64,000 bases of DNA from a virus (Duplodnaviria > Caudoviricetes), in the IMG/VR virus record IMGVR_UViG_3300037692_000137, positions 32,001-96,000 of that record; one strand, 5' to 3'. The translations under genes were made by a program, and so were the position numbers. The stretch's first letter is position 1. Every line of letters starts with the position of its first letter. Below are positions 1-31,906 of the stretch, piece by piece. Under the pieces are notes generated by a model. The model saw only the letters and a program-made list of their open reading frames with translations. It was not told the DNA's origin and made no database searches.

Positions 1-1493
1 AAACCACCATACATTCTTAAACGTGAGGGGTCTACACCAGCGTGTAGGGCCAAACTTGTTATAAGGAAAGCCATGTCTTCACAATTATGACATATATGAC
101 CAAACTTACTTACGAACGTATGAGTATCAGCCACCATAAAGTCACGAGTATTGGTGCTGCCCATAGGTTTAACACTGTGTATGGACACTTCGCTTATACC
201 GTCGTACCCGTAGTCCTTTGCAAAATAGCTATTAGAGTTATAACTAAGTCGCCATATGGGTTTGTTGCCTAGCCCTTTATGGTCTTTTTGTAACCACATA
301 TGAATAGGTATGCCCAACTGCATTTGCAGTCTCTGTAGGTCGTAAGCTAACTTGTACGAGCTAGTTGAATAGGTCTTTTCTTTGTTAGAGTTTTCAGCAT
401 ATTTTGAGTAATGCCCATCCCCAAGAAAGTGTCCATTTATTATAGCATATAGTTTATTCGCTGGCAAGTAAAATAGTTCTTCCGGTATATTAATATCAAA
501 ACTATTGACTTTACAAAGCCTTAAATACTGCTTCAACTTTGAGCTCAAAAAATTAAGGTAGGGCACACCACTGTTATTAGTAGTAATACTATATGGTATG
601 TTATATTTATCCAAAATAGGTACTATACTTGTGGGTACATCATAACCACTTGTTCTAACGTGACTACGGTCTGTATCACCTTCAGCTAAAAAATGCCCTA
701 TAACAAAACATAAATCTTCGGTAAGCCAGGCAATGTCTTTAATTACATACGGTAGTTTTTTAACACAAGGTATTTTACGTTTCCACCACCTGCTAAGGTC
801 TATATCACATAGCTTAGTTTTCTCATAATCAGAATACTTTTGTACACGCCTAGTCCAGAAAGGGTGGTCCTCTGTCACGTCTATCCAGGTACCATTAGTA
901 AATTTCACCCTAAAAATAGGTAGATTTCCCTTCTCCCATATTTTAAGCACAGGTTTATAACAATAACTTTTTTTGTCAAAGTCATAAGATAGAACTATGT
1001 CCCCTACTTGTAAAGCACCTACTTCTTTGAGGCCATCCTTTGTCCAAATTTCCTCATAGTTAGCAATACAATCCCCGTCCTTATGTAAAAGCGTTTCAGT
1101 AGGATAGGCCCAGTACTCATTTTGGCCATAATTTAAGTCGTCAGTTTGATAAGTAATATTTTCATTTACCCATTGTTCTACCTTATACATCTTTTCTGTG
1201 TCATCGTAGGAACCCTTTGTTATTTCAGCCGCTAATTTGAACAACCTTGTGTTGGGGTACTCAAAATATTTATTGTAGTCCAAGTCTTGTTCAGCAGCTT
1301 TACCACTTACTGCACCATTAAAACGCAAAAGTGCCACATCAAGAGCTGATTTTGTGTTCATCAGGTTTTGTATAAAGGCACTCGCTGAGTTGGGATCTGT
1401 TTTAAAACTATCCCAAATGGTGGCGGATTTCCAATCATTGATTTGAGGTAGTAATTCAGATATAAAATTAGATACGCTACTGATTGAAGACAT
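1..1493 (-). CDS. Transglutaminase-like cysteine protease (BTLCP/LapG-like) containing an intein; 3' end runs off the window
   Basis: Not in the ORF track because its stop is outside the window. Manual translation from ATG 1493 (AAGGA SD): MSSISSVSNF...EYWAYPTETLLHKDGD|intein|CEDMAFLITSLALHAGVDPSRLRMYGG. YWAxPxETL..GDCED is the BTLCP-type catalytic motif. Confidence 0.8.
   Translation of the reverse strand, partial: MSSISSVSNFISELLPQINDWKSATIWDSFKTDPNSASAFIQNLMNTKSALDVALLRFNGAVSGKAAEQDLDYNKYFEYPNTRLFKLAAEITKGSYDDTEKMYKVEQWVNENITYQTDDLNYGQNEYWAYPTETLLHKDGDCIANYEEIWTKDGLKEVGALQVGDIVLSYDFDKKSYCYKPVLKIWEKGNLPIFRVKFTNGTWIDVTEDHPFWTRRVQKYSDYEKTKLCDIDLSRWWKRKIPCVKKLPYVIKDIAWLTEDLCFVIGHFLAEGDTDRSHVRTSGYDVPTSIVPILDKYNIPYSITTNNSGVPYLNFLSSKLKQYLRLCKVNSFDINIPEELFYLPANKLYAIINGHFLGDGHYSKYAENSNKEKTYSTSSYKLAYDLQRLQMQLGIPIHMWLQKDHKGLGNKPIWRLSYNSNSYFAKDYGYDGISEVSIHSVKPMGSTNTRDFMVADTHTFVSKFGHICHNCEDMAFLITSLALHAGVDPSRLRMYGG
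84..1070 (-). mobile_element. Intein (329 aa) with LAGLIDADG homing endonuclease
   Basis: Starts CIANYEEIWTKDG, block B VTEDHPFW, LAGLIDADG-like motifs VIGHFLAEGD and INGHFLGDGH, ends HTFVSKFGHICHN, followed by +1 Cys. Confidence 0.92.
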
Positions 1494-1806: not shown

Positions 1807-2466
1807 TTATTTAATTTTTCGTCCTCTAACCCAACCCAAATTTTCCAACGTGTTGAGATCTTCTTTATTTATAGATCTACTCTCATGCGTATAAGGGCAG
1901 TAAACCCACACAGTGCCATAACGAGAATTAAACTGCCCTGCTTGTCCTATTGAATTTTTTCTACCAATTGTGTGCTTGGTCTCTTGTGTGTGCTTCTTAC
2001 CATAAAAACTATTTTTAGCTCCTTTATGCTTACCGGTATGGGATTTACTCATTTTATTTTTATACTTTTCCCATCTGCCCGAAGCTATTAAAATTGTCTT
2101 TAATTTATTACCACACACTAAATTTTCTTGGCCATAACCTTTTTGGCCATTTTTACCATATAAATTTAATTTTAATTCATTTATAGCGGCAATGTTTTTA
2201 TAACCACCCTCAATTAAATTATATGTAAATGGGTTTTTAACAAAGTCTTTGTTTACTAAAATTTCTTCAAGTTCTGACATATCCTCATGGTTATCAAATA
2301 CAGCTAGGATATCTTTTGTAAAATTTTGTATACCATATTTTCGTTGAGCAGCTATAAGATGCCGCCCTGAACCCATATATGTGTCATCAATATGTGTAGT
2401 TCTATGACAACCTACATAAATTTTATTATTAATGGTGTTTGTTATTTTATATACAACATAAAACAT
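1807..2466 (-). CDS. Free-standing GIY-YIG homing endonuclease (Seg-like) with NUMOD3-type DNA-binding motif
   Basis: VVYKITNTINNKIYVG..YMGSG..KYGIQNFTKDIL; NSFYGKKHTQETK. Start moved to MFYVVY (2466) because the track's 2568 start lies inside tRNA-Thr. Confidence 0.88.
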   Translation of the reverse strand: MFYVVYKITNTINNKIYVGCHRTTHIDDTYMGSGRHLIAAQRKYGIQNFTKDILAVFDNHEDMSELEEILVNKDFVKNPFTYNLIEGGYKNIAAINELKLNLYGKNGQKGYGQENLVCGNKLKTILIASGRWEKYKNKMSKSHTGKHKGAKNSFYGKKHTQETKHTIGRKNSIGQAGQFNSRYGTVWVYCPYTHESRSINKEDLNTLENLGWVRGRKIK

Positions 2467-2525
2467 ATAATAATTCCTGACACTTAAATAAAAGATTATT
2501 GTATTTGTATAAACATAATAATAAG

Positions 2526-2611
2526 TGGAGCCTAGAGAGGGATTCGAACCCCCGATGTGTTTTACCACGACAGCTTACAAAACTGCTGCTATACCCCTTA
2601 GCGATCTAGGC
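2526..2611 (-). tRNA. tRNA-Thr(UGU) with an unusual long variable arm
   Basis: Acceptor GCCTAGA/TCTAGGC, U73, encoded CCA; anticodon loop TT-TGT-AA; T-loop TTCGAAT; 16-nt variable region. Confidence 0.85.
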
Positions 2612-2639: not shown

Positions 2640-2714
2640 TGGGAGCAGCGGCAGGACTCGAACCTGCATAACCAGGGATATGAGCCCTGTGAGAAGCCAT
2701 TTCTCAACGCTGCG
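2640..2714 (-). tRNA. Initiator-type tRNA-fMet(CAU)
   Basis: C1xU72 mismatch, A11-U24, anticodon stem CAGGG/CCCTG (three G-C pairs), loop CT-CAT-AT, encoded CCA. Confidence 0.88.
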
Positions 2715-4319: not shown

Positions 4320-4426
4320 ACCCCCTCCTCCAAAGTCTGCCGTAGTCACTCGACTTCGCTCTGATATGTAATCAGAACCGGGATGTTTATCCCGCTAAGG
4401 AGAAGGGTTAAGTAAGGGGGTTGTTG
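4320..4426 (-). ncRNA. Candidate multibranch structured RNA directly 3' of tRNA-Tyr
   Basis: Closing helix CCCTTCTCC/GGAGGAGGG enclosing hairpins CGGGAT-AAAC-ATCCCG, TCTGA-TTACATA-TCAGA and AGTC-GAGT-GACT. Confidence 0.4.
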
Positions 4427-4513
4427 TGGAGAGAGGAGGATTCGAACCTCCGGGTTCAGCACAACGGCGGTGGTTTTACAGACCACTCCCTTCAACCGCT
4501 CGGGCATCTCTCC
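4427..4513 (-). tRNA. tRNA-Tyr(GUA), CCA not encoded
   Basis: GGAGAGA/TCTCTCC acceptor, loop CT-GTA-AA, long variable arm, followed by CAA. Confidence 0.92.
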
Positions 4514-5398: not shown

Positions 5399-6034
5399 TT
5401 AATACCTCATCCATTGTTTCTTTTTTTTAGTACAATCTTTCCAACAAGTAGTATGAGAGTCACCTCTATGCATATCATCCCACGAGTTTGGTAAGTTCTT
5501 TACATTCCTACAAGCTCGCACATAGGGGTTACACCCACAACTTAGCCGGCGTTCTTGTGTTGTTTTGGGGCGCTTATAGTATTGATTAAAATGCCACCTT
5601 CTTTTTCTTGTATAAGGAACAGGCCCATTACGAAAACCTAACCATTCATACTCTTTAAACCTGTTACGTTTAGTATACTTTTTAGGCACATAATTGTCAA
5701 GATCTTTTTTTATTTTTTCTGTGTTTATTACCCTAAAATTAGCATCTAATAAGATAAGCTCTATCTTATCTTTGACATCTTTACCTAACCAACCACCAGG
5801 CTTCTCAGGAACAAAGTGGATGTAGGTGTCATTCCAGTTGTTGCCAATGTTTTGTGATAACACCGTAGCAATACTTTTTGGGCGAAAATATTCACGTAAT
5901 GTTTTTCTGTTAGGATCAAGCCATTGGCGTTTGCGGTATCTAGCTAATAAAAAGTCTGCGTAAGATTTGAACTCCTCATAGTTGTTATCCCTATCAACCA
6001 AATAAACTCTTACATCTTTATTAATTGTGTGCAT
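5399..6034 (-). CDS. Basic hypothetical protein
   Basis: ORF track, 211 aa; C-terminal LPNSWDD...CWK..KKKKQW; AAGGAG SD. Confidence 0.65.
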   Translation of the reverse strand: MHTINKDVRVYLVDRDNNYEEFKSYADFLLARYRKRQWLDPNRKTLREYFRPKSIATVLSQNIGNNWNDTYIHFVPEKPGGWLGKDVKDKIELILLDANFRVINTEKIKKDLDNYVPKKYTKRNRFKEYEWLGFRNGPVPYTRKRRWHFNQYYKRPKTTQERRLSCGCNPYVRACRNVKNLPNSWDDMHRGDSHTTCWKDCTKKKKQWMRY

Positions 6035-6115
6035 TTAGACTCTCCTTTAAGTTAAAGTTAATAAACTTAAAGGATGTCTTGTACGTAATAGTATAGTATT
6101 TTATGTTTCATAATA

Positions 6116-6352
6116 TTAATCTGTCTCTAATAGTAAATTTGTATAGTAAACTAATTCTTTTTTTACTCCGGCCATATAACAACCCTTACCATGTCTACCA
6201 TCTATACTTATTTGTACATTTGTTTTGTCACACCCTTTACAAAAAGGATATGGATTAGGGGGTTTGGTGTACCATGAGTCATACAATTTACTTTCTAATT
6301 TACGCACCCTATCTTGTAGCCTCTCGCGTGTACTCATATGGTTGGCCTTCAT
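6116..6352 (-). CDS. Hypothetical protein
   Basis: ORF track, 78 aa; AAGGAG SD; CxxC. Confidence 0.55.
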   Translation of the reverse strand: MKANHMSTRERLQDRVRKLESKLYDSWYTKPPNPYPFCKGCDKTNVQISIDGRHGKGCYMAGVKKELVYYTNLLLETD

Positions 6353-6407
6353 GTTAACTCCTTTAGCGCAGTTTATTTAACTCAAAGACAGTGTGCTTAT
6401 GAATCAA

Positions 6408-6493
6408 TGGCGGAGGAAGTAGGATTCGAACCCACGGAACTTTCGTTCAACGGTTTTCAAGACCGCCGCCTTCAACCACTCGGCCATTCCTCC
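6408..6493 (-). tRNA. tRNA-Ser(UGA)
   Basis: GGAGGAA/TTCCTCC acceptor, G73, CCA, loop CT-TGA-AA, long variable arm. Confidence 0.95.
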
Positions 6494-6500
6494 TGCTCAG

Positions 6501-6548
6501 TATAATATAGGCTACTAGAGTCTAACCCCTCTAGTAGCCTATATTATA
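6501..6548. terminator. Perfect 20-bp inverted repeat downstream of the cytochrome gene (terminator or processing stem)
   Basis: TATAATATAGGCTACTAGAG-8nt-CTCTAGTAGCCTATATTATA. Confidence 0.6.
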
Positions 6549-24528: not shown

Positions 24529-27500
24529 TTATTGTTCCTTACCACAAGTAGCACACACTAAATTTTGTCCATACTTGCCGCCGGCATCAAACTTAAATTC
24601 CTGACCACCACAACCACCCTTATCTTTATCACAGGTGCCTTTCATCCAACAGGCTGATATAAGCGCATCAGTTTCCATTGGAATAATTTTAAAGTACATA
24701 TTAAAACCATCCTTTATTGCTTGCTCTACTATCTTTGCAACTTCATATCTATATTCGTAGTCGCACTCAACAATTAGCTCATCGTGTACAGTTAAAAGTA
24801 ATTTAGCATAGTAGGGTAACACTTCTAAACGTTCTACAAGAAAAATCATGGCCTGTTTAATAGTGTCGGCATTCGAGTTATGTACCACCACACCATTGGC
24901 TGTAAAATAATGTATTTTATCACACATTAAATCATACGTATCTTCTACACCTCTATAAGTTAAAGAGGTAGCTTTACAAAAGTCAAAGTTTAAAAATTGT
25001 TCTAAATATTTTTTTTCTCTGCCTTCTGGTAATCTAATATAAAAGTGACGCCAACTGTAAAAAGAGCATTTACCTAATTTAAAGCGCCGCAAGTGTGCCT
25101 TTTCGGTAGAGGTAAATTCTGATAAGTAATTATCTGCTTTTCTTAAAGTTGCTTCTATTAATTTAGGTATAAATTCAGGCACCATACTGCCGTCACCGCA
25201 TCTTGGTGTATTTAATGCCATATTTAAAAGTTTACTTTTATCTAAAACCGAAAAACCTATCAACTCTTTAAATTGTTTATTAAATCTTTTAGGTATTTGA
25301 ATTCTATAAACCAACTCTCCGTTTTCACTATACTCCTTAAGATTAGAGTTTATGCCTAAGGAAAACAAAAGTTGCTGAATAGACTCCGCAAGCGCTTTTG
25401 AACTTGTTGTGTAGTTTGGACCACTGTTTTTCGTCATACCACCATCAGTAGAAAACAGTCCATTTAATAAAGCACCCTTGTTTTTTAAAGTCTCTGTATA
25501 AAAATAATCGGGGATGCTCTTATATCTCGCTGTAACATAATCCAAACCTACATACTTTAAGAAACCCCTTATAACAACGGAACTAGCTTGTGCCGTATAT
25601 AAAGGAGTAGTTCTATTTTTATATACAGTTCTTACAATAGGTTTGTAATTAAACACATTAAATACATAAGAATTGAATTTGTCGAATAGTTCTTTTTGGT
25701 ATTCTGGACAAATAAAACGTATATGATTATGTTCAGTATAATTACCATCACCAATTAAGCAGCCAATAATAAAAGCAAGCTCTTTTGACATCTCTTTAGG
25801 TGTAGTCTGTTCTTTATAGGTTTCTCGCCAGTGCTTTTTTTCATAAGTATACCCTGATAAATCGGACACCTTACCATCAATGGTATTCAACGGGATTAAA
25901 AAGTAGTCTTCATTTAATTTTATATTTTCTACTGCTTTTTCCTCAACACCATTTTCCGTAATCACAGGAATTTTGTGTTCTAATGTTATACCTAAATTAC
26001 TACCATTGGAAAGTTTTAAATCATACACTTTTTTCTTGCCTGAGTAAACACCTACAGCCGTATCCTTACCAAAACCAGTTTCCAAGGGTACTTGAGTGTT
26101 CACATAATTACCAATACTTCCTAACCCATTTATCTGACTGTCAAATACTAAACAACCCTGAATAGGCGCGTTCTTTGCCTGCCTTTTAACACCATTAATG
26201 ATAAATTTTCTATCTGGTGAGTCATACTTAGGTATGTCATAGAATCGTTTACGTCCTATAATAGTCTCACTATATCCTTTCCTTACGGCCTCATTAGATA
26301 AGTCTTCTAACCACTGCTTAATTTTAGGAAACATAGTAAAGTAATTAAGCATTAAGCGCTCGGCCTTCTTTTCTGATATCTTTAATCTACGACTCAAACC
26401 AAACTTGGAAAGACCATAGGCTAAACCGAAAGTAATCGCCTTTGAAGCTTTACGTTGTTCTTTAGATACCTTTTCATACTCTACATTAAAAACACCTGCT
26501 GCGGATTTAGTATGTAAATCAATACCGTCCAAGTAACAAGAAACAAACACGGGATCTTGTGACATATTACCTATGATACGTAGTTCGGCGCCGGACATAT
26601 CTGCGGTTATTAAAGCACAGCCTGGTTTAGCTATGAAGCAGCTTCTATAAATTTGTTTACCTGGTATATTTTGTAGGTTTGGGTTAGAGCTGCTTAGCCT
26701 ACCAGTTTGCATTAGTTGCTTAAAATCTGTGTGCAGTCTACCTGTAGTTGGGTGAATTTTATCCAGCAACGGTTGTCCATAAGTAGAAATAAGTTTTTCC
26801 GCTTTTCTATAAGCTAATATATTATCAATTACATTGACACCAGCGTACTTCTCAAGCTCCTCAACTGCCGTACCTTCAACCTCGATACCGTATTTTTTAA
26901 GTGCCTCCTTAAGCTGCTTAGGACTATCTATATTTATTAAAGATACACCAAATAACGTTGTTTGGTTTTCAGTAGCATCTAGTGTTTTTGTAATTTGAGC
27001 ATGGAGTTCATCTTTCTTTTTAGCTACTTCCTGCATAATCAAAAGCCAGCGCTCCGTATTAATTGTAATGCCGTTTAATTCCATCTCAGCCATGGGCTTG
27101 ACGAAATCAAATTCTAACTGACATACCTTCTCTAACGAGTGTTTAGCCACAGACAGTAATTGAGCATCACGTATTACACCTAAAGTACAAACGTCTAATG
27201 CCGCATACTCAAGTTGATAGTTTTGAAAATCCTGCTCATAGTCTGAGAAAGTACCACGAGGCTCTTTGTCCATAGCAAGCCCTAAATACCTTTGCACTAA
27301 TACGGATAATGCCGCTTTAACATAGGGTCTGCCGAGGTTTATCAGTTGTTCGGCTAACATTGTATCATATATATTGTTTATATAAAAGTTATAATGATGT
27401 TTAATCATTTTAACATCGTACAAAGCATTTTGAAGTAGTTTTAATTTAGTCCTATCTTCTAAAAGGTCCTTAAACAGCGATATATCAAATTCACTTTTAC

Positions 27501-27723
27501 CTATATCCTTTCTAATATCAAAAACAAAGGGCTGCCCTTGTACACCTAACTGTAATAAAACGAGCTTACCGTCAAAAGGAGATAAAGAGGTACCTTCTGT
27601 ATCTACCTCTATCATCTCAAATTGATTGATGTAGTCCAACGCGGCCAAGGCATCATCAAGTTTATTAATGTAAGTATACTTAGGAGCCGGCAATTTAGCA
27701 ACACTTTTATCAAAAACACCCAT
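24529..27723 (-). CDS. polA: Family A DNA polymerase (3'-5' exo plus pol, no 5'-3' exo) containing an intein
   Basis: DTEGT, YAALD, TGRLSSSNPNLQNIP, ADMSGAELRI, RKASKAITFGLAYG, NAPIQG|S.AD, LTVHDEL. Confidence 0.95.
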   Translation of the reverse strand: MGVFDKSVAKLPAPKYTYINKLDDALAALDYINQFEMIEVDTEGTSLSPFDGKLVLLQLGVQGQPFVFDIRKDIGKSEFDISLFKDLLEDRTKLKLLQNALYDVKMIKHHYNFYINNIYDTMLAEQLINLGRPYVKAALSVLVQRYLGLAMDKEPRGTFSDYEQDFQNYQLEYAALDVCTLGVIRDAQLLSVAKHSLEKVCQLEFDFVKPMAEMELNGITINTERWLLIMQEVAKKKDELHAQITKTLDATENQTTLFGVSLINIDSPKQLKEALKKYGIEVEGTAVEELEKYAGVNVIDNILAYRKAEKLISTYGQPLLDKIHPTTGRLHTDFKQLMQTGRLSSSNPNLQNIPGKQIYRSCFIAKPGCALITADMSGAELRIIGNMSQDPVFVSCYLDGIDLHTKSAAGVFNVEYEKVSKEQRKASKAITFGLAYGLSKFGLSRRLKISEKKAERLMLNYFTMFPKIKQWLEDLSNEAVRKGYSETIIGRKRFYDIPKYDSPDRKFIINGVKRQAKNAPIQGCLVFDSQINGLGSIGNYVNTQVPLETGFGKDTAVGVYSGKKKVYDLKLSNGSNLGITLEHKIPVITENGVEEKAVENIKLNEDYFLIPLNTIDGKVSDLSGYTYEKKHWRETYKEQTTPKEMSKELAFIIGCLIGDGNYTEHNHIRFICPEYQKELFDKFNSYVFNVFNYKPIVRTVYKNRTTPLYTAQASSVVIRGFLKYVGLDYVTARYKSIPDYFYTETLKNKGALLNGLFSTDGGMTKNSGPNYTTSSKALAESIQQLLFSLGINSNLKEYSENGELVYRIQIPKRFNKQFKELIGFSVLDKSKLLNMALNTPRCGDGSMVPEFIPKLIEATLRKADNYLSEFTSTEKAHLRRFKLGKCSFYSWRHFYIRLPEGREKKYLEQFLNFDFCKATSLTYRGVEDTYDLMCDKIHYFTANGVVVHNSNADTIKQAMIFLVERLEVLPYYAKLLLTVHDELIVECDYEYRYEVAKIVEQAIKDGFNMYFKIIPMETDALISACWMKGTCDKDKGGCGGQEFKFDAGGKYGQNLVCATCGKEQ
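24877..26154 (-). mobile_element. Intein (426 aa) with LAGLIDADG endonuclease in PolA
   Basis: Starts CLVFDSQ, ITLEHKI, IIGCLIGDG, LNGLFSTDG, ends YFTANGVVVHN, +1 Ser. Confidence 0.93.
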
Positions 27724-31138: not shown

Positions 31139-31906
31139 TTATTTTATGTCGAGCGCAGCTCTAAAAAGTTTTGATATTAAGAGATCACTTTGCAAAATCC
31201 CTTCTAGGTCATGTTCTAAAATAGAGTAGTCCTTGTGTTTACTAAACAATGAGTTGAACAATGTGATGGCTATCGGTCTAGAATCCATAATAAAGTCAGA
31301 CCCCTTGTTACTAAAAAATACTTGCCAATCTTCCCAAATGACCGGGTGAAACTTGGATTCTGGTAGCAATGCATAATGGTTAATATTATTGAACACGATA
31401 GGGCTCAAAAGTCTTAGGCCCAATTCTCCCCAGTAAAATGAAGTTTTGCTATCTATTAAGGTTTCTTGGGCTTTTAGATACTTAGTTATTATGTGCCCAC
31501 CTTCTACTGAAGCCATAAAACCATTACTTATACCATCAATTGTTCTAGTTTTATGGCAAGCCATAAATCCTTTTTCATTTATAACTTCCAGTAATGGTGT
31601 AAAGTCTTCGAGCACGATAGTGTCGGCGTCAAGCCACACCCCGCCATACTTATGAAGTAGAGCTGTTCTTATATATGCAGTACGTATAGCTATGTTCTTT
31701 GGCGAGTCTACTGAACTGCTGTCATGATGCAGCTCTTTGTACCTAGGATTTATTTCGGGTAAATAAGCCTCAACATTAGAGGGGTTTACAAGCATTATGA
31801 CACACTGGCTACCGCAGTTGGCTTGCATCGACTCAATGCATAGTTTTATATAGGCTGGCATGTCTTTTCCGGGCAGGTTTTCCCAATATACCCATATCAT
31901 ACACAT
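31139..31906 (-). CDS. DxD glycosyltransferase (GT32/capsule-synthesis-like)
   Basis: IWVYW..P..IKLC, R..LLHKYGGVWLDAD, NGFM, WGELG. Confidence 0.85.
   Translation of the reverse strand: MCMIWVYWENLPGKDMPAYIKLCIESMQANCGSQCVIMLVNPSNVEAYLPEINPRYKELHHDSSSVDSPKNIAIRTAYIRTALLHKYGGVWLDADTIVLEDFTPLLEVINEKGFMACHKTRTIDGISNGFMASVEGGHIITKYLKAQETLIDSKTSFYWGELGLRLLSPIVFNNINHYALLPESKFHPVIWEDWQVFFSNKGSDFIMDSRPIAITLFNSLFSKHKDYSILEHDLEGILQSDLLISKLFRAALDIK

Follow-up and report, generated by a model that had tools for sequence, protein, structure and literature searches.

The stretch of DNA analysed here (the window, 64,000 nt; coordinates are window positions unless otherwise labelled) belongs to an uncultured 234-kb sediment phage and carries, at its left edge, most of a gene interrupted by an intein. 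The gene lies on the minus strand, starts at position 1493 and runs 297 bases past the left edge of the window, to the stop codon located in the whole genome. Within the window it appears as an open reading frame with an open 3' end (3-1493, minus strand), and for this reason it is missing from the ORF track; its absence there, rightly pointed out in the sequence-only reading, is merely an effect of the window edge. In the whole-genome reading the gene occupies L001:5703-7493 and encodes a precursor of 596 aa, consisting of an N-extein (aa 1-141), an intein (aa 142-470) and a C-extein (aa 471-596). A possible ribosome-binding site, AAGGA, precedes the ATG at 1493 by 8 nt. The gene is situated in a neighbourhood of DNA-metabolism genes, not of structural ones. 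The features are given below, with residue conservation counted over 83 related inteins.

1071..1493, minus strand: N-extein, aa 1-141; contains the first half of the transglutaminase core; last residues ...KDGD
84..1070, minus strand: intein of 329 aa (aa 142-470), in which a LAGLIDADG homing endonuclease is nested within a class-1 HINT splicing domain
1068..1070, minus strand: Cys1 of the intein (aa 142), codon TGT; first-step splicing nucleophile; Cys in 83/83
864..875, minus strand: block B TxxH, T207-E-D-H210; Thr or Ser in 83/83, His in 78/83
675..707, minus strand: first LAGLIDADG motif, aa 263-273, FVIGHFLAEGD; presumed catalytic E271
411..446, minus strand: second LAGLIDADG motif, aa 350-361, AIINGHFLGDGH; presumed catalytic D359
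84..143, minus strand: blocks F and G, aa 451-470 (D451...T457-H458...C468-H469-N470)
1..83, minus strand: start of the C-extein; Cys471 (83-81), then EDMAF
G000:C1:31703-32000, left of the window: remainder of the C-extein, aa 498-596, including H514 and E530

Both junctions were read directly from the DNA. On the N-terminal side, GAT (D141, 1073-1071) is followed by TGT (intein Cys1, aa 142, 1070-1068), and on the C-terminal side CAT-AAT (H469-N470, 89-84) is followed by TGT (Cys+1, aa 471, 83-81). The codons after the TGT of Cys471, GAA GAC ATG GCT TTC, encode EDMAF, and the originally proposed layout of GD/intein/CEDMAF is therefore exact. When aligned with three intein-less homologues of 267-270 aa (P0003, P0004 and P0005), the precursor differs by a single clean gap of 329 residues at GD/CED, as befits the in-frame insertion of a class-1 intein; since this gap falls precisely at the junction, the match cannot be attributed to chance. 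Similarly, the two halves of the Pfam Transglut_core domain (profile positions 3-55 and 53-107) adjoin at the insertion point.

The insertion places one residue in two roles. Cys471 is the +1 nucleophile of splicing and also the predicted catalytic Cys of the GDCED motif in a transglutaminase-like cysteine peptidase, in agreement with the sequence-only reading, and the intein parts D141 from C471-E472. In BTLCP enzymes the Cys of the D-C-E triplet is the nucleophile and the acidic residues on either side of it are calcium ligands, as in D316-C317-E318 of DvhG (PMC13090378).

The intein and its fold

The block A Cys, the TxxH motif and the C-terminal His-Asn with a +1 Cys, by which class-1 inteins are recognized, are all present, and the +1 Cys was found in 82/82 relatives with both junctions resolved. 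In blocks F and G, D451 and T457 are invariant (83/83), while H458 is retained in 74/83 and the penultimate His in 72/83. Of the 83 relatives, 38 have Asn and 45 have Gln as the terminal residue of the intein. Both LAGLIDADG motifs (aa 263-273 and 350-361) are retained, as had been observed from the letters, and each includes a conserved acidic residue: E271 of the first motif is found in 80/83 relatives (with Asp in two more), flanked by G266 and G272 in 83/83, and G358 and D359 of the second motif are likewise present in 83/83. The Pfam families LAGLIDADG_3, Intein_splicing and PT-HINT all match the intein; the LAGLIDADG_3 match covers aa 350-424 with an E value of 4e-7, above the cut-off.

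In the AF2 model of the precursor, pLDDT exceeds 90 across the intein. A Foldseek search with this model placed the TliVMA and PhoVMA inteins on top (E 1e-18, TMt 0.72), followed by PI-SceI and PI-PfuI. The HINT fold is apparent in the matches to TliVMA, PI-SceI and Ssp DnaB mini-inteins, and the fold of the endonuclease resembles that of I-DmoI. Judged by its residues, the element is a canonical class-1 intein with an active-looking LAGLIDADG homing endonuclease.

The closest known inteins are TliVMA and PhoVMA (PDB 7qsu/7qss/7qst), PI-SceI in yeast VMA1 (1vde/1ef0) and PI-PfuI (1dq3). They share with the phage intein the Cys1, the TxxH motif, two acidic LAGLIDADG motifs, the His-Asn of blocks F/G and the +1 Cys, together with the HINT and LAGLIDADG folds (Foldseek E 1e-18 to 1e-10), and in all of them a conserved active-site motif of the host is occupied. 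Sequence identity to the phage intein is only 10-20%. Unlike the solved inteins, the phage intein is compact, at 329 aa, with no obvious extra DNA-recognition domain, and about half of its family ends in Gln, versus Asn in the solved inteins. The hosts differ as well, being ATPases, polymerases or other nucleic-acid enzymes for the solved inteins and a transglutaminase-fold cysteine peptidase for that of the phage.

The putative host peptidase

The N-extein begins with a helical region, modelled at low confidence, and its residues 87-142 match Transglut_core positions 3-54 and Peptidase_C93 positions 35-74. The C-extein by itself had no match in Pfam; a score is obtained only with the joined domain, as it occurs in the intein-less homologues. 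In these homologues, the match to PF01841 Transglut_core spans positions 3-107 of 108 at 50.8 and 54.5 bits (cut-off 23), with an E value of 2e-13 over the full profile in one homologue. The match to PF06035 Peptidase_C93 is partial (positions 37-100 of 162) and lower-scoring than that to PF01841, at 39.6 bits for P0003 and 28.8 bits for the phage's own N-extein (cut-off 27). No PHROGs family was found for the extein.

Retrieval of the downstream part of the gene, to the left of the window, revealed H514, the catalytic His, which is invariant in 92 relatives, and an acidic residue in the third position, E530, in a protein of transglutaminase-like fold, as the initial assignment to a protease presupposed. 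The third residue is Glu in the phage's own clade, whereas at least 90% of the 92 aligned relatives have Asp there. The predicted triad would be composed of Cys471-His514-Glu530, in which Glu in third place is chemically plausible. Cys471 is the sole Cys of the mature protein of 267 aa.

The likeness to the BTLCP/LapG type is supported both by sequence profile and by fold. Among solved structures, the family profile matched the LapG chain 4u65_E with an E value of 4e-15 and 4fgo with 2e-10; the D-C-E triplet is present at the sequence level, in D141/C471-E472-D473, and aligns with the GDCED of 4u65_E. In Foldseek, the top match of the AF2 model of the host (pLDDT 81) was again LapG, with an E value of 7e-7. 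The closest known enzymes are therefore LapG/BTLCP (PF06035, MEROPS C93; PDB 4u65 chain E, 4fgo/4fgp/4fgq; DvhG of Desulfovibrio), which resemble the phage protein in their transglutaminase-like fold and GDCED loop and likewise have the catalytic His and an acidic residue at the third triad position.

Several differences set the phage protein apart from this group. Hydropathy analysis indicated no signal peptide and no membrane segment: the Kyte-Doolittle maxima were about 1.0 (15-residue window, first 70 residues) and 1.13 (19-residue window, anywhere). The hydrophobic N-terminal core of an exported protein is lacking, which bears out the earlier remark that no signal peptide is evident, and the protein carries neither signal peptide nor membrane anchor, in contrast to the periplasmic LapG/BTLCP enzymes. 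Since it has no export signal, it was not filed as a LapG orthologue. It further possesses an additional helical N-terminus of ~75 aa, bears Glu in place of Asp as third triad residue, and is phage-encoded and intein-split. A calcium-dependent enzyme in a low-calcium cytoplasm is somewhat odd.

The mature protein could have an activity other than proteolysis, for instance by cross-linking proteins, as a deamidase, or by attacking cell-wall or glycan substrates as an amidase or isopeptidase, although we consider this rather unlikely. The top Pfam match is the generic Transglut_core, and true transglutaminases and PNGase, as well as two pseudomurein endoisopeptidases, PeiP and psiM2 PeiP, are among the remoter fold matches; all of these would suit such an activity. 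The nearest solved structures, however, are that of the protease LapG and, after it, those of two putative proteases (3isr and 3kd4) and of the protease CPR-C4, and the DCED calcium motif of the BTLCP proteases is preserved. Moreover, in a protein devoid of an export signal the cell wall would be out of reach before lysis. Calcium-assisted cysteine endopeptidase activity is the most likely function of the mature enzyme, which would meet its substrate inside the infected cell.

Same-site relatives and recent transfer between phages

The relatives of the intein comprise 88 protein clusters. All 82 clusters with both junctions carry it at xD/C(E/D)x, and in 64 of the 82 the motif is exactly GD/CED. 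The residue pair at the C-terminal junction is His-Gln in 38 of the 82, His-Asn in 33 and another pair in the remaining 11. The exteins of these clusters fall into a small class of about 200-300 aa and a large class of 580-690 aa (Peptidase_C93). Most of the about 2,000 members of the host family do not carry the intein. In 82/82 clusters the intein is closer to the phage intein than the extein is to the phage extein (mean identity 54% versus 34%), a difference that could partly reflect slower evolution of the intein instead of transfer.

Among phage records, a megablast search with the locus gave no match, and tblastn detected no relative of the extein; the latter search yielded weak intein-intein matches in cytosine methyltransferase and ribonucleotide reductase hosts.

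The precursor gene was compared with the gene of a related groundwater phage (L003-L005). The inteins of the pair differ at 11 of 987 nt (1.1%) and the exteins at 115 of 804 nt (14%; Fisher p 5e-30), and dS is 0.031 for the intein versus 0.82 for the exteins. The tract of low divergence stops no more than 24 nt from one intein junction and no more than 6 nt from the other, while the flanking genes of the two phages are 75-92% identical. The variant with a near-identical intein and diverged exteins is carried on a 29-kb contig from the public run X2. The comparison of the phage pair demonstrates a recent horizontal transfer of the intein between diverged phages. Of the comparisons within the family, only that of dS in the phage pair is decisive for transfer. 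Contigs from four public runs, which are blind to rare variants, contained no joint across the intein.

The same data bear on whether the insertion has become a dead end, in which an intein that splices poorly or no longer would leave the host gene effectively inactivated and would persist only because the peptidase is dispensable. The distribution of the host family in phages is patchy and, together with the want of a PHROG match, suggests that the family may be accessory; in addition, splicing is read here from sequence. On the other hand, every catalytic residue of splicing is intact, the frame is open over 596 aa in two lineages with exteins at dS 0.82, and the dN/dS of the exteins is 0.06, indicative of purifying selection. 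Most of the extein divergence may predate the arrival of the intein, so that this low ratio by itself is no proof of an active enzyme from the intein-bearing allele. We regard such inactivation as very improbable. The near-identity of the intein in the two lineages implies that it arrived recently, with little time for decay.

Predicted splicing and homing, and biological meaning

Taken together, the locus is very probably explained by a selfish, constitutively splicing class-1 intein at the catalytic Cys of a LapG-like phage peptidase. Splicing would begin with an N-S acyl shift at Cys142; Cys471 would then carry out the trans-thioesterification, Asn470 would cyclise, and an S-N shift would complete the ligation of the exteins. 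Excision would restore the D-C-E-D loop, which forms both the active site and the calcium site, and thereby produce the mature enzyme with its Cys471-His514-Glu530 triad. Before splicing, the precursor would be inactive, and the corresponding statement in the sequence-only reading was a sound one, with D141 split from C471-E472. During co-infection the endonuclease would cut intein-less alleles at the GDCED-coding site, and repair would copy the intein in. Homing at this conserved site would explain why the intein occupies the best-conserved point in the gene.

The further suggestion, that redox- or metal-dependent splicing gates the enzyme, was not supported. Such conditional splicing would imply that the intein is kept in order to delay or gate a potentially harmful peptidase, either via a disulfide at Cys+1 or via Zn2+/Ca2+ at D/CED. 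In its variants, a C468-C471 CxxC or a Cys1-Cys+1 pair would confine the enzyme to reducing or late-infection conditions. Precedents exist in other inteins, in which conditional splicing occurs through redox traps and extein partnerships (PMC5790916; see also Callahan 2011, as cited in PMC5050341), and variation in the penultimate and terminal residues tunes the rate of splicing (PMC5050341). Both of these residues vary across the present family, and the precursor would necessarily be inactive, since the nucleophile is split from its neighbouring calcium ligand. In addition, C468-H-N-C471 constitutes a CxxC across the C-terminal junction, shared with P0025 and P0161, and is the sole sequence hint of gating.

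Several observations nevertheless render conditional splicing improbable. The cysteine of the CxxC is not conserved, and the position of C468 is mostly occupied in the intein family by Ser, Thr or Gly; a CxxC redox trap as a feature of the family was dropped on this account. P0003, P0004, P0005 and most of the about 2,000 members of the host family are intein-free; with many close relatives lacking an intein, a gate is evidently dispensable for the enzyme. In general, moreover, a bacterial cytoplasm is a reducing environment. Finally, the recent lateral spread and the conserved nuclease fit a selfish element that has recently moved. A more elaborate version, to which we assign a marginally lower probability still, is that the intein has been co-opted as a timer or sensor: splicing tuned by the junction residues, namely His-Asn or His-Gln and in some alleles a CxxC, or by redox or metals would free the LapG-like, calcium-dependent peptidase from an inert precursor only at a set stage of infection, perhaps together with a phage c-di-GMP phosphodiesterase, for remodelling of host adhesion or for cutting a defence protein.

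Inteins are mostly known from enzymes of replication, recombination, packaging and nucleotide metabolism. In mycobacteriophages they are found in the active centres of terminase, TOPRIM, RDF, nucleotidyltransferase and ThyX proteins (Kelley et al. 2016, PMC5050341). The intein of the sediment phage shares with them a site in the active centre, evidence of horizontal transfer between phages and a variable penultimate residue; its host, unlike theirs, is not an enzyme of DNA metabolism or packaging. Neither PMC5050341 nor a 2025 survey of actinobacteriophages includes a protease or a transglutaminase-like protein as intein host, and a literature search of incomplete coverage yielded no report of an intein in the LapG-like/transglutaminase-like host family. 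The intein is ordinary in kind and leaves concepts of intein function unchanged, while its host family is, so far as the literature was searched, new as an intein host.

The list of intein hosts is hereby widened, with at least 83 protein clusters sharing a single intein site in a peptidase family, in support of the rule by which the least mutable codons of a gene are the ones that homing elements occupy. The phage pair constitutes an unusually clean natural case of recent intein transfer, with dS of 0.03 inside and 0.82 outside the element. Protein engineering could make use of these inteins, which are compact, of the Cys1/Cys+1 type, terminated by Asn or Gln and equipped with a native GD/CED junction. 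In terms of phage biology, the interrupted gene draws attention to the LapG-like phage peptidases of the cytoplasm, a family both widespread and uncharacterised.

The gene and its intein

The intein-bearing ORF lies on the minus strand of G000:C1, a single virus record of 234,228 bases (window, its positions 32001-96000). It starts at window position 1493, with AAGGA 8 nt 5' of the ATG and the stop of a small preceding ORF one base upstream, and runs without a stop up to the window's first base. In the full genome, the stop is located 297 bases left of the window, and 596 residues are encoded (L001:5703-7493). The gene is indeed missing from the ORF track, as the sequence-only reading had stated, because it crosses the window edge. 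The junctions were read from the DNA:

Window 1073-1071, minus: GAT, D141, last N-extein residue
Window 1070-1068, minus: TGT, intein Cys1 (residue 142)
Window 89-84, minus: CAT-AAT, H469-N470
Window 83-81, minus: TGT, Cys+1 (residue 471), then EDMAF

The N-extein, used as query against 5.8 billion proteins, yielded two intein-less homologues of 267 residues, P0003 and P0004 (N-exteins 77% and 53% identical), and an exhaustive HMMER search yielded a third, P0005 (270 residues). All three, aligned with the precursor, show one clean 329-residue gap precisely between GD and CED, and the Pfam Transglut_core match to the genome falls into two pieces (profile positions 3-55 and 53-107) abutting at the insertion. 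The earlier description, an intein between GD and CEDMAF, is therefore correct, far beyond chance, and is borne out by the codons at both junctions.

Every class-1 intein hallmark was found within residues 142-470:

Cys1: residue 142
Block B: T207-E-D-H210
Two LAGLIDADG motifs: presumed catalytic acids E271 and D359
Block F: D451...T457-H458
Block G: H469-N470, then Cys+1

In Pfam, LAGLIDADG_3 passed its cut-off, while the Intein_splicing and PT-HINT matches fell short of theirs; both LAGLIDADG motifs are kept, as had been claimed. The AlphaFold2 model of the precursor, based on 62 intein-bearing homologues, has a mean pLDDT of 82.8 (>90 across most of the intein). In Foldseek, the best matches to this model were the TliVMA and PhoVMA inteins, both endonuclease-bearing (E 1e-18 to 1e-16; TM by target 0.61-0.72), followed by PI-SceI, PI-PfuI, mini-inteins and I-DmoI, all similar to the modelled intein in fold. 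The intein is ordinary in kind.

The host enzyme

The intein-less homologues matched the whole Transglut_core profile (E 2e-13 and 2e-14), Peptidase_C93 (BTLCP) in part and DUF553 more weakly still (Pfam). Among solved structures, the profile built from 92 relatives matched LapG of P. fluorescens (4u65 chain E; E 4e-15) and of Legionella (4fgo; 2e-10), with the GDCED loop, His and Asp all in register. LapG structures were also the top Foldseek matches (E 7e-7 to 1e-5) to the AlphaFold2 model of P0003 (pLDDT 81, core above 90), followed by the putative cysteine proteases 3isr, 3kd4 and CPR-C4. The predicted triad comprises Cys471, the sole cysteine of the mature protein, His514 and Glu530. The downstream His sought in the earlier reading is present and invariant; the third residue is Glu in this protein, P0003 and P0005, against Asp in 90% or more of the relatives.

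By these comparisons, the host protein appears to be a member of the transglutaminase-core superfamily and is predicted to work like BTLCP. The proposed LapG-type assignment holds in that the closest solved structures are LapG, which share the GDCED loop, His and fold; identity as a LapG orthologue was rejected, since it lacks an export signal and matches PF06035 only in part. Neither a signal peptide, whose absence had been anticipated, nor a membrane helix was found in the host protein. The residues flanking the catalytic Cys of BTLCPs bind essential calcium (D316 and E318 around C317 in DvhG; PMC13090378), and the intein thus comes between D141, a predicted calcium ligand, and C471-E472, the nucleophile and next putative ligand.

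Extein relatives numbered about 2,090 representative proteins (E up to 1e-3), and the protein-atlas neighbours were mostly small transglutaminase-like proteins from tailed phages. A PHROGs search of the extein returned no match.

A same-site intein family and its transfer

Searching with the intein alone recovered 88 protein clusters, 41-72% identical over its full length. In all 82 clusters with both junctions placeable, the site was xD followed, across the junction, by C(E/D)x, and in 64 of these it was exactly GD and CED. The exteins were either small (about 200-300 residues) or large (580-690 residues, annotated Peptidase_C93). Splicing residues were near-invariant among 83 inteins (Cys1, 83; block B His, 78; block F Asp and Thr, 83 each; penultimate His, 72), as were those of the nuclease (E271, 80 plus 2 Asp; D359, 83). 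The last residue was Gln in 45, mostly as His-Gln ahead of the +1 Cys, and Asn in 38; terminal Gln is rare among described inteins. In 82 of 82 cases, the intein was closer to the present one than the extein was to its counterpart here (mean 54% vs 34%).

The gene is also found on three IMG/VR contigs of different sample origin (L003-L005); these copies are identical to one another and encode a protein 96% identical to the present one. Divergence from these copies is distributed very unevenly (p = 5e-30, Fisher's exact test):

Exteins: 115/804 base differences (14%), dS 0.82, dN/dS 0.06
Intein: 11/987 base differences (1.1%), dS 0.031, dN/dS 0.20

Compared in windows of 150 nt, the intein shows 98-100% identity, against 75-92% in the genes on either side, and the extein differences closest to it are found 24 nt ahead of its N-terminal junction and 6 nt beyond its C-terminal one. 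This sharply lower divergence indicates that the intein became common to both phage lineages through sharing long after the host genes diverged, and the pattern appears to be the mark of homing accompanied by short co-conversion tracts. The same variant, with diverged extein and near-identical intein, occurs in a 29-kb groundwater contig of a public run (X2). Immediately 3' of the gene, about 2.9 kb in the related phage (L005:7778-10656) stands against about 0.3 kb here (G000:C1 about 31400-31715), a difference due to insertion or deletion.

Genomic setting and the role of the intein

The neighbouring genes encode an AAA+ protein of the ClpB-D2 type, a GIY-YIG/NUMOD3 homing endonuclease, and proteins resembling Rad52 and an HhH glycosylase; in L002, a 53%-identical intein-less relative, the Rad52-like and AAA+ genes again lie downstream of the transglutaminase-like gene. 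This neighbourhood is not a structural module. In L002, a Peptidase_C14 (caspase-like) gene (5622-6518, plus strand) lies two genes upstream; none of the phage's own ORFs at the corresponding place (the GIY-YIG endonuclease and ORFs of 100, 84 and 145 residues) matched C14. Other mobile elements and tRNA genes of this phage are as follows.

Window 1807-2568, minus: free-standing gene for a Seg-like homing endonuclease, GIY-YIG plus NUMOD3 (phrog_314, E 9e-42), located 5' of the intein-bearing gene at a distance of about 300 bases; also in L005, 83-95% identity
Window 2526-2611, minus: tRNA-Thr(UGU), upstream of the intein locus
Window 2640-2714, minus: tRNA-Met(CAU), likewise upstream
Window 4426-4513, minus: tRNA-Tyr(GUA), likewise upstream
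Window 24529-27723, minus: second intein, in a 1064-residue family-A DNA polymerase; junctions APIQG/C and VVVHN/SNAD; LAGLIDADG_3 (E 1e-14) and Intein_splicing pieces (Pfam)
G000:C1:24442-26016 (L010:811-2385, minus), left of the window: third intein, in a 524-residue ORF for a small P-loop NTPase, placed within its Walker A loop; junctions GTHG/C and VLKN/SGKST; Lys-Asn terminus in place of His-Asn; LAGLIDADG_3 E 3e-8

The GIY-YIG gene probably begins at the Met near position 2466, because tRNA-Thr overlaps the listed GTG start.

Phage inteins in active centres are established (PMC5050341); the literature search found no paper on a transglutaminase-like or BTLCP intein host. While the insertion observed in the sequence-only reading is confirmed, its interpretation is only partly supported. 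It had proposed redox- or metal-gated splicing, by which the intein would regulate release of the active enzyme, and the sole sequence hint of this is the CxxC across the junction (C468-H-N-C471), a motif that is not conserved in the intein family. Moreover, many close relatives of the enzyme are intein-less, and gating is therefore not needed for its function; we consider such regulation quite improbable. The intein is, very probably, a selfish passenger that splices out, its nuclease homing into intein-less alleles. The unspliced precursor would be inactive, and standard four-step splicing would rebuild the D-C-E-D loop, giving a 267-residue cytoplasmic cysteine peptidase, probably calcium-assisted. 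During co-infection, the nuclease would target intein-less alleles at their conserved GDCED-coding sequence.
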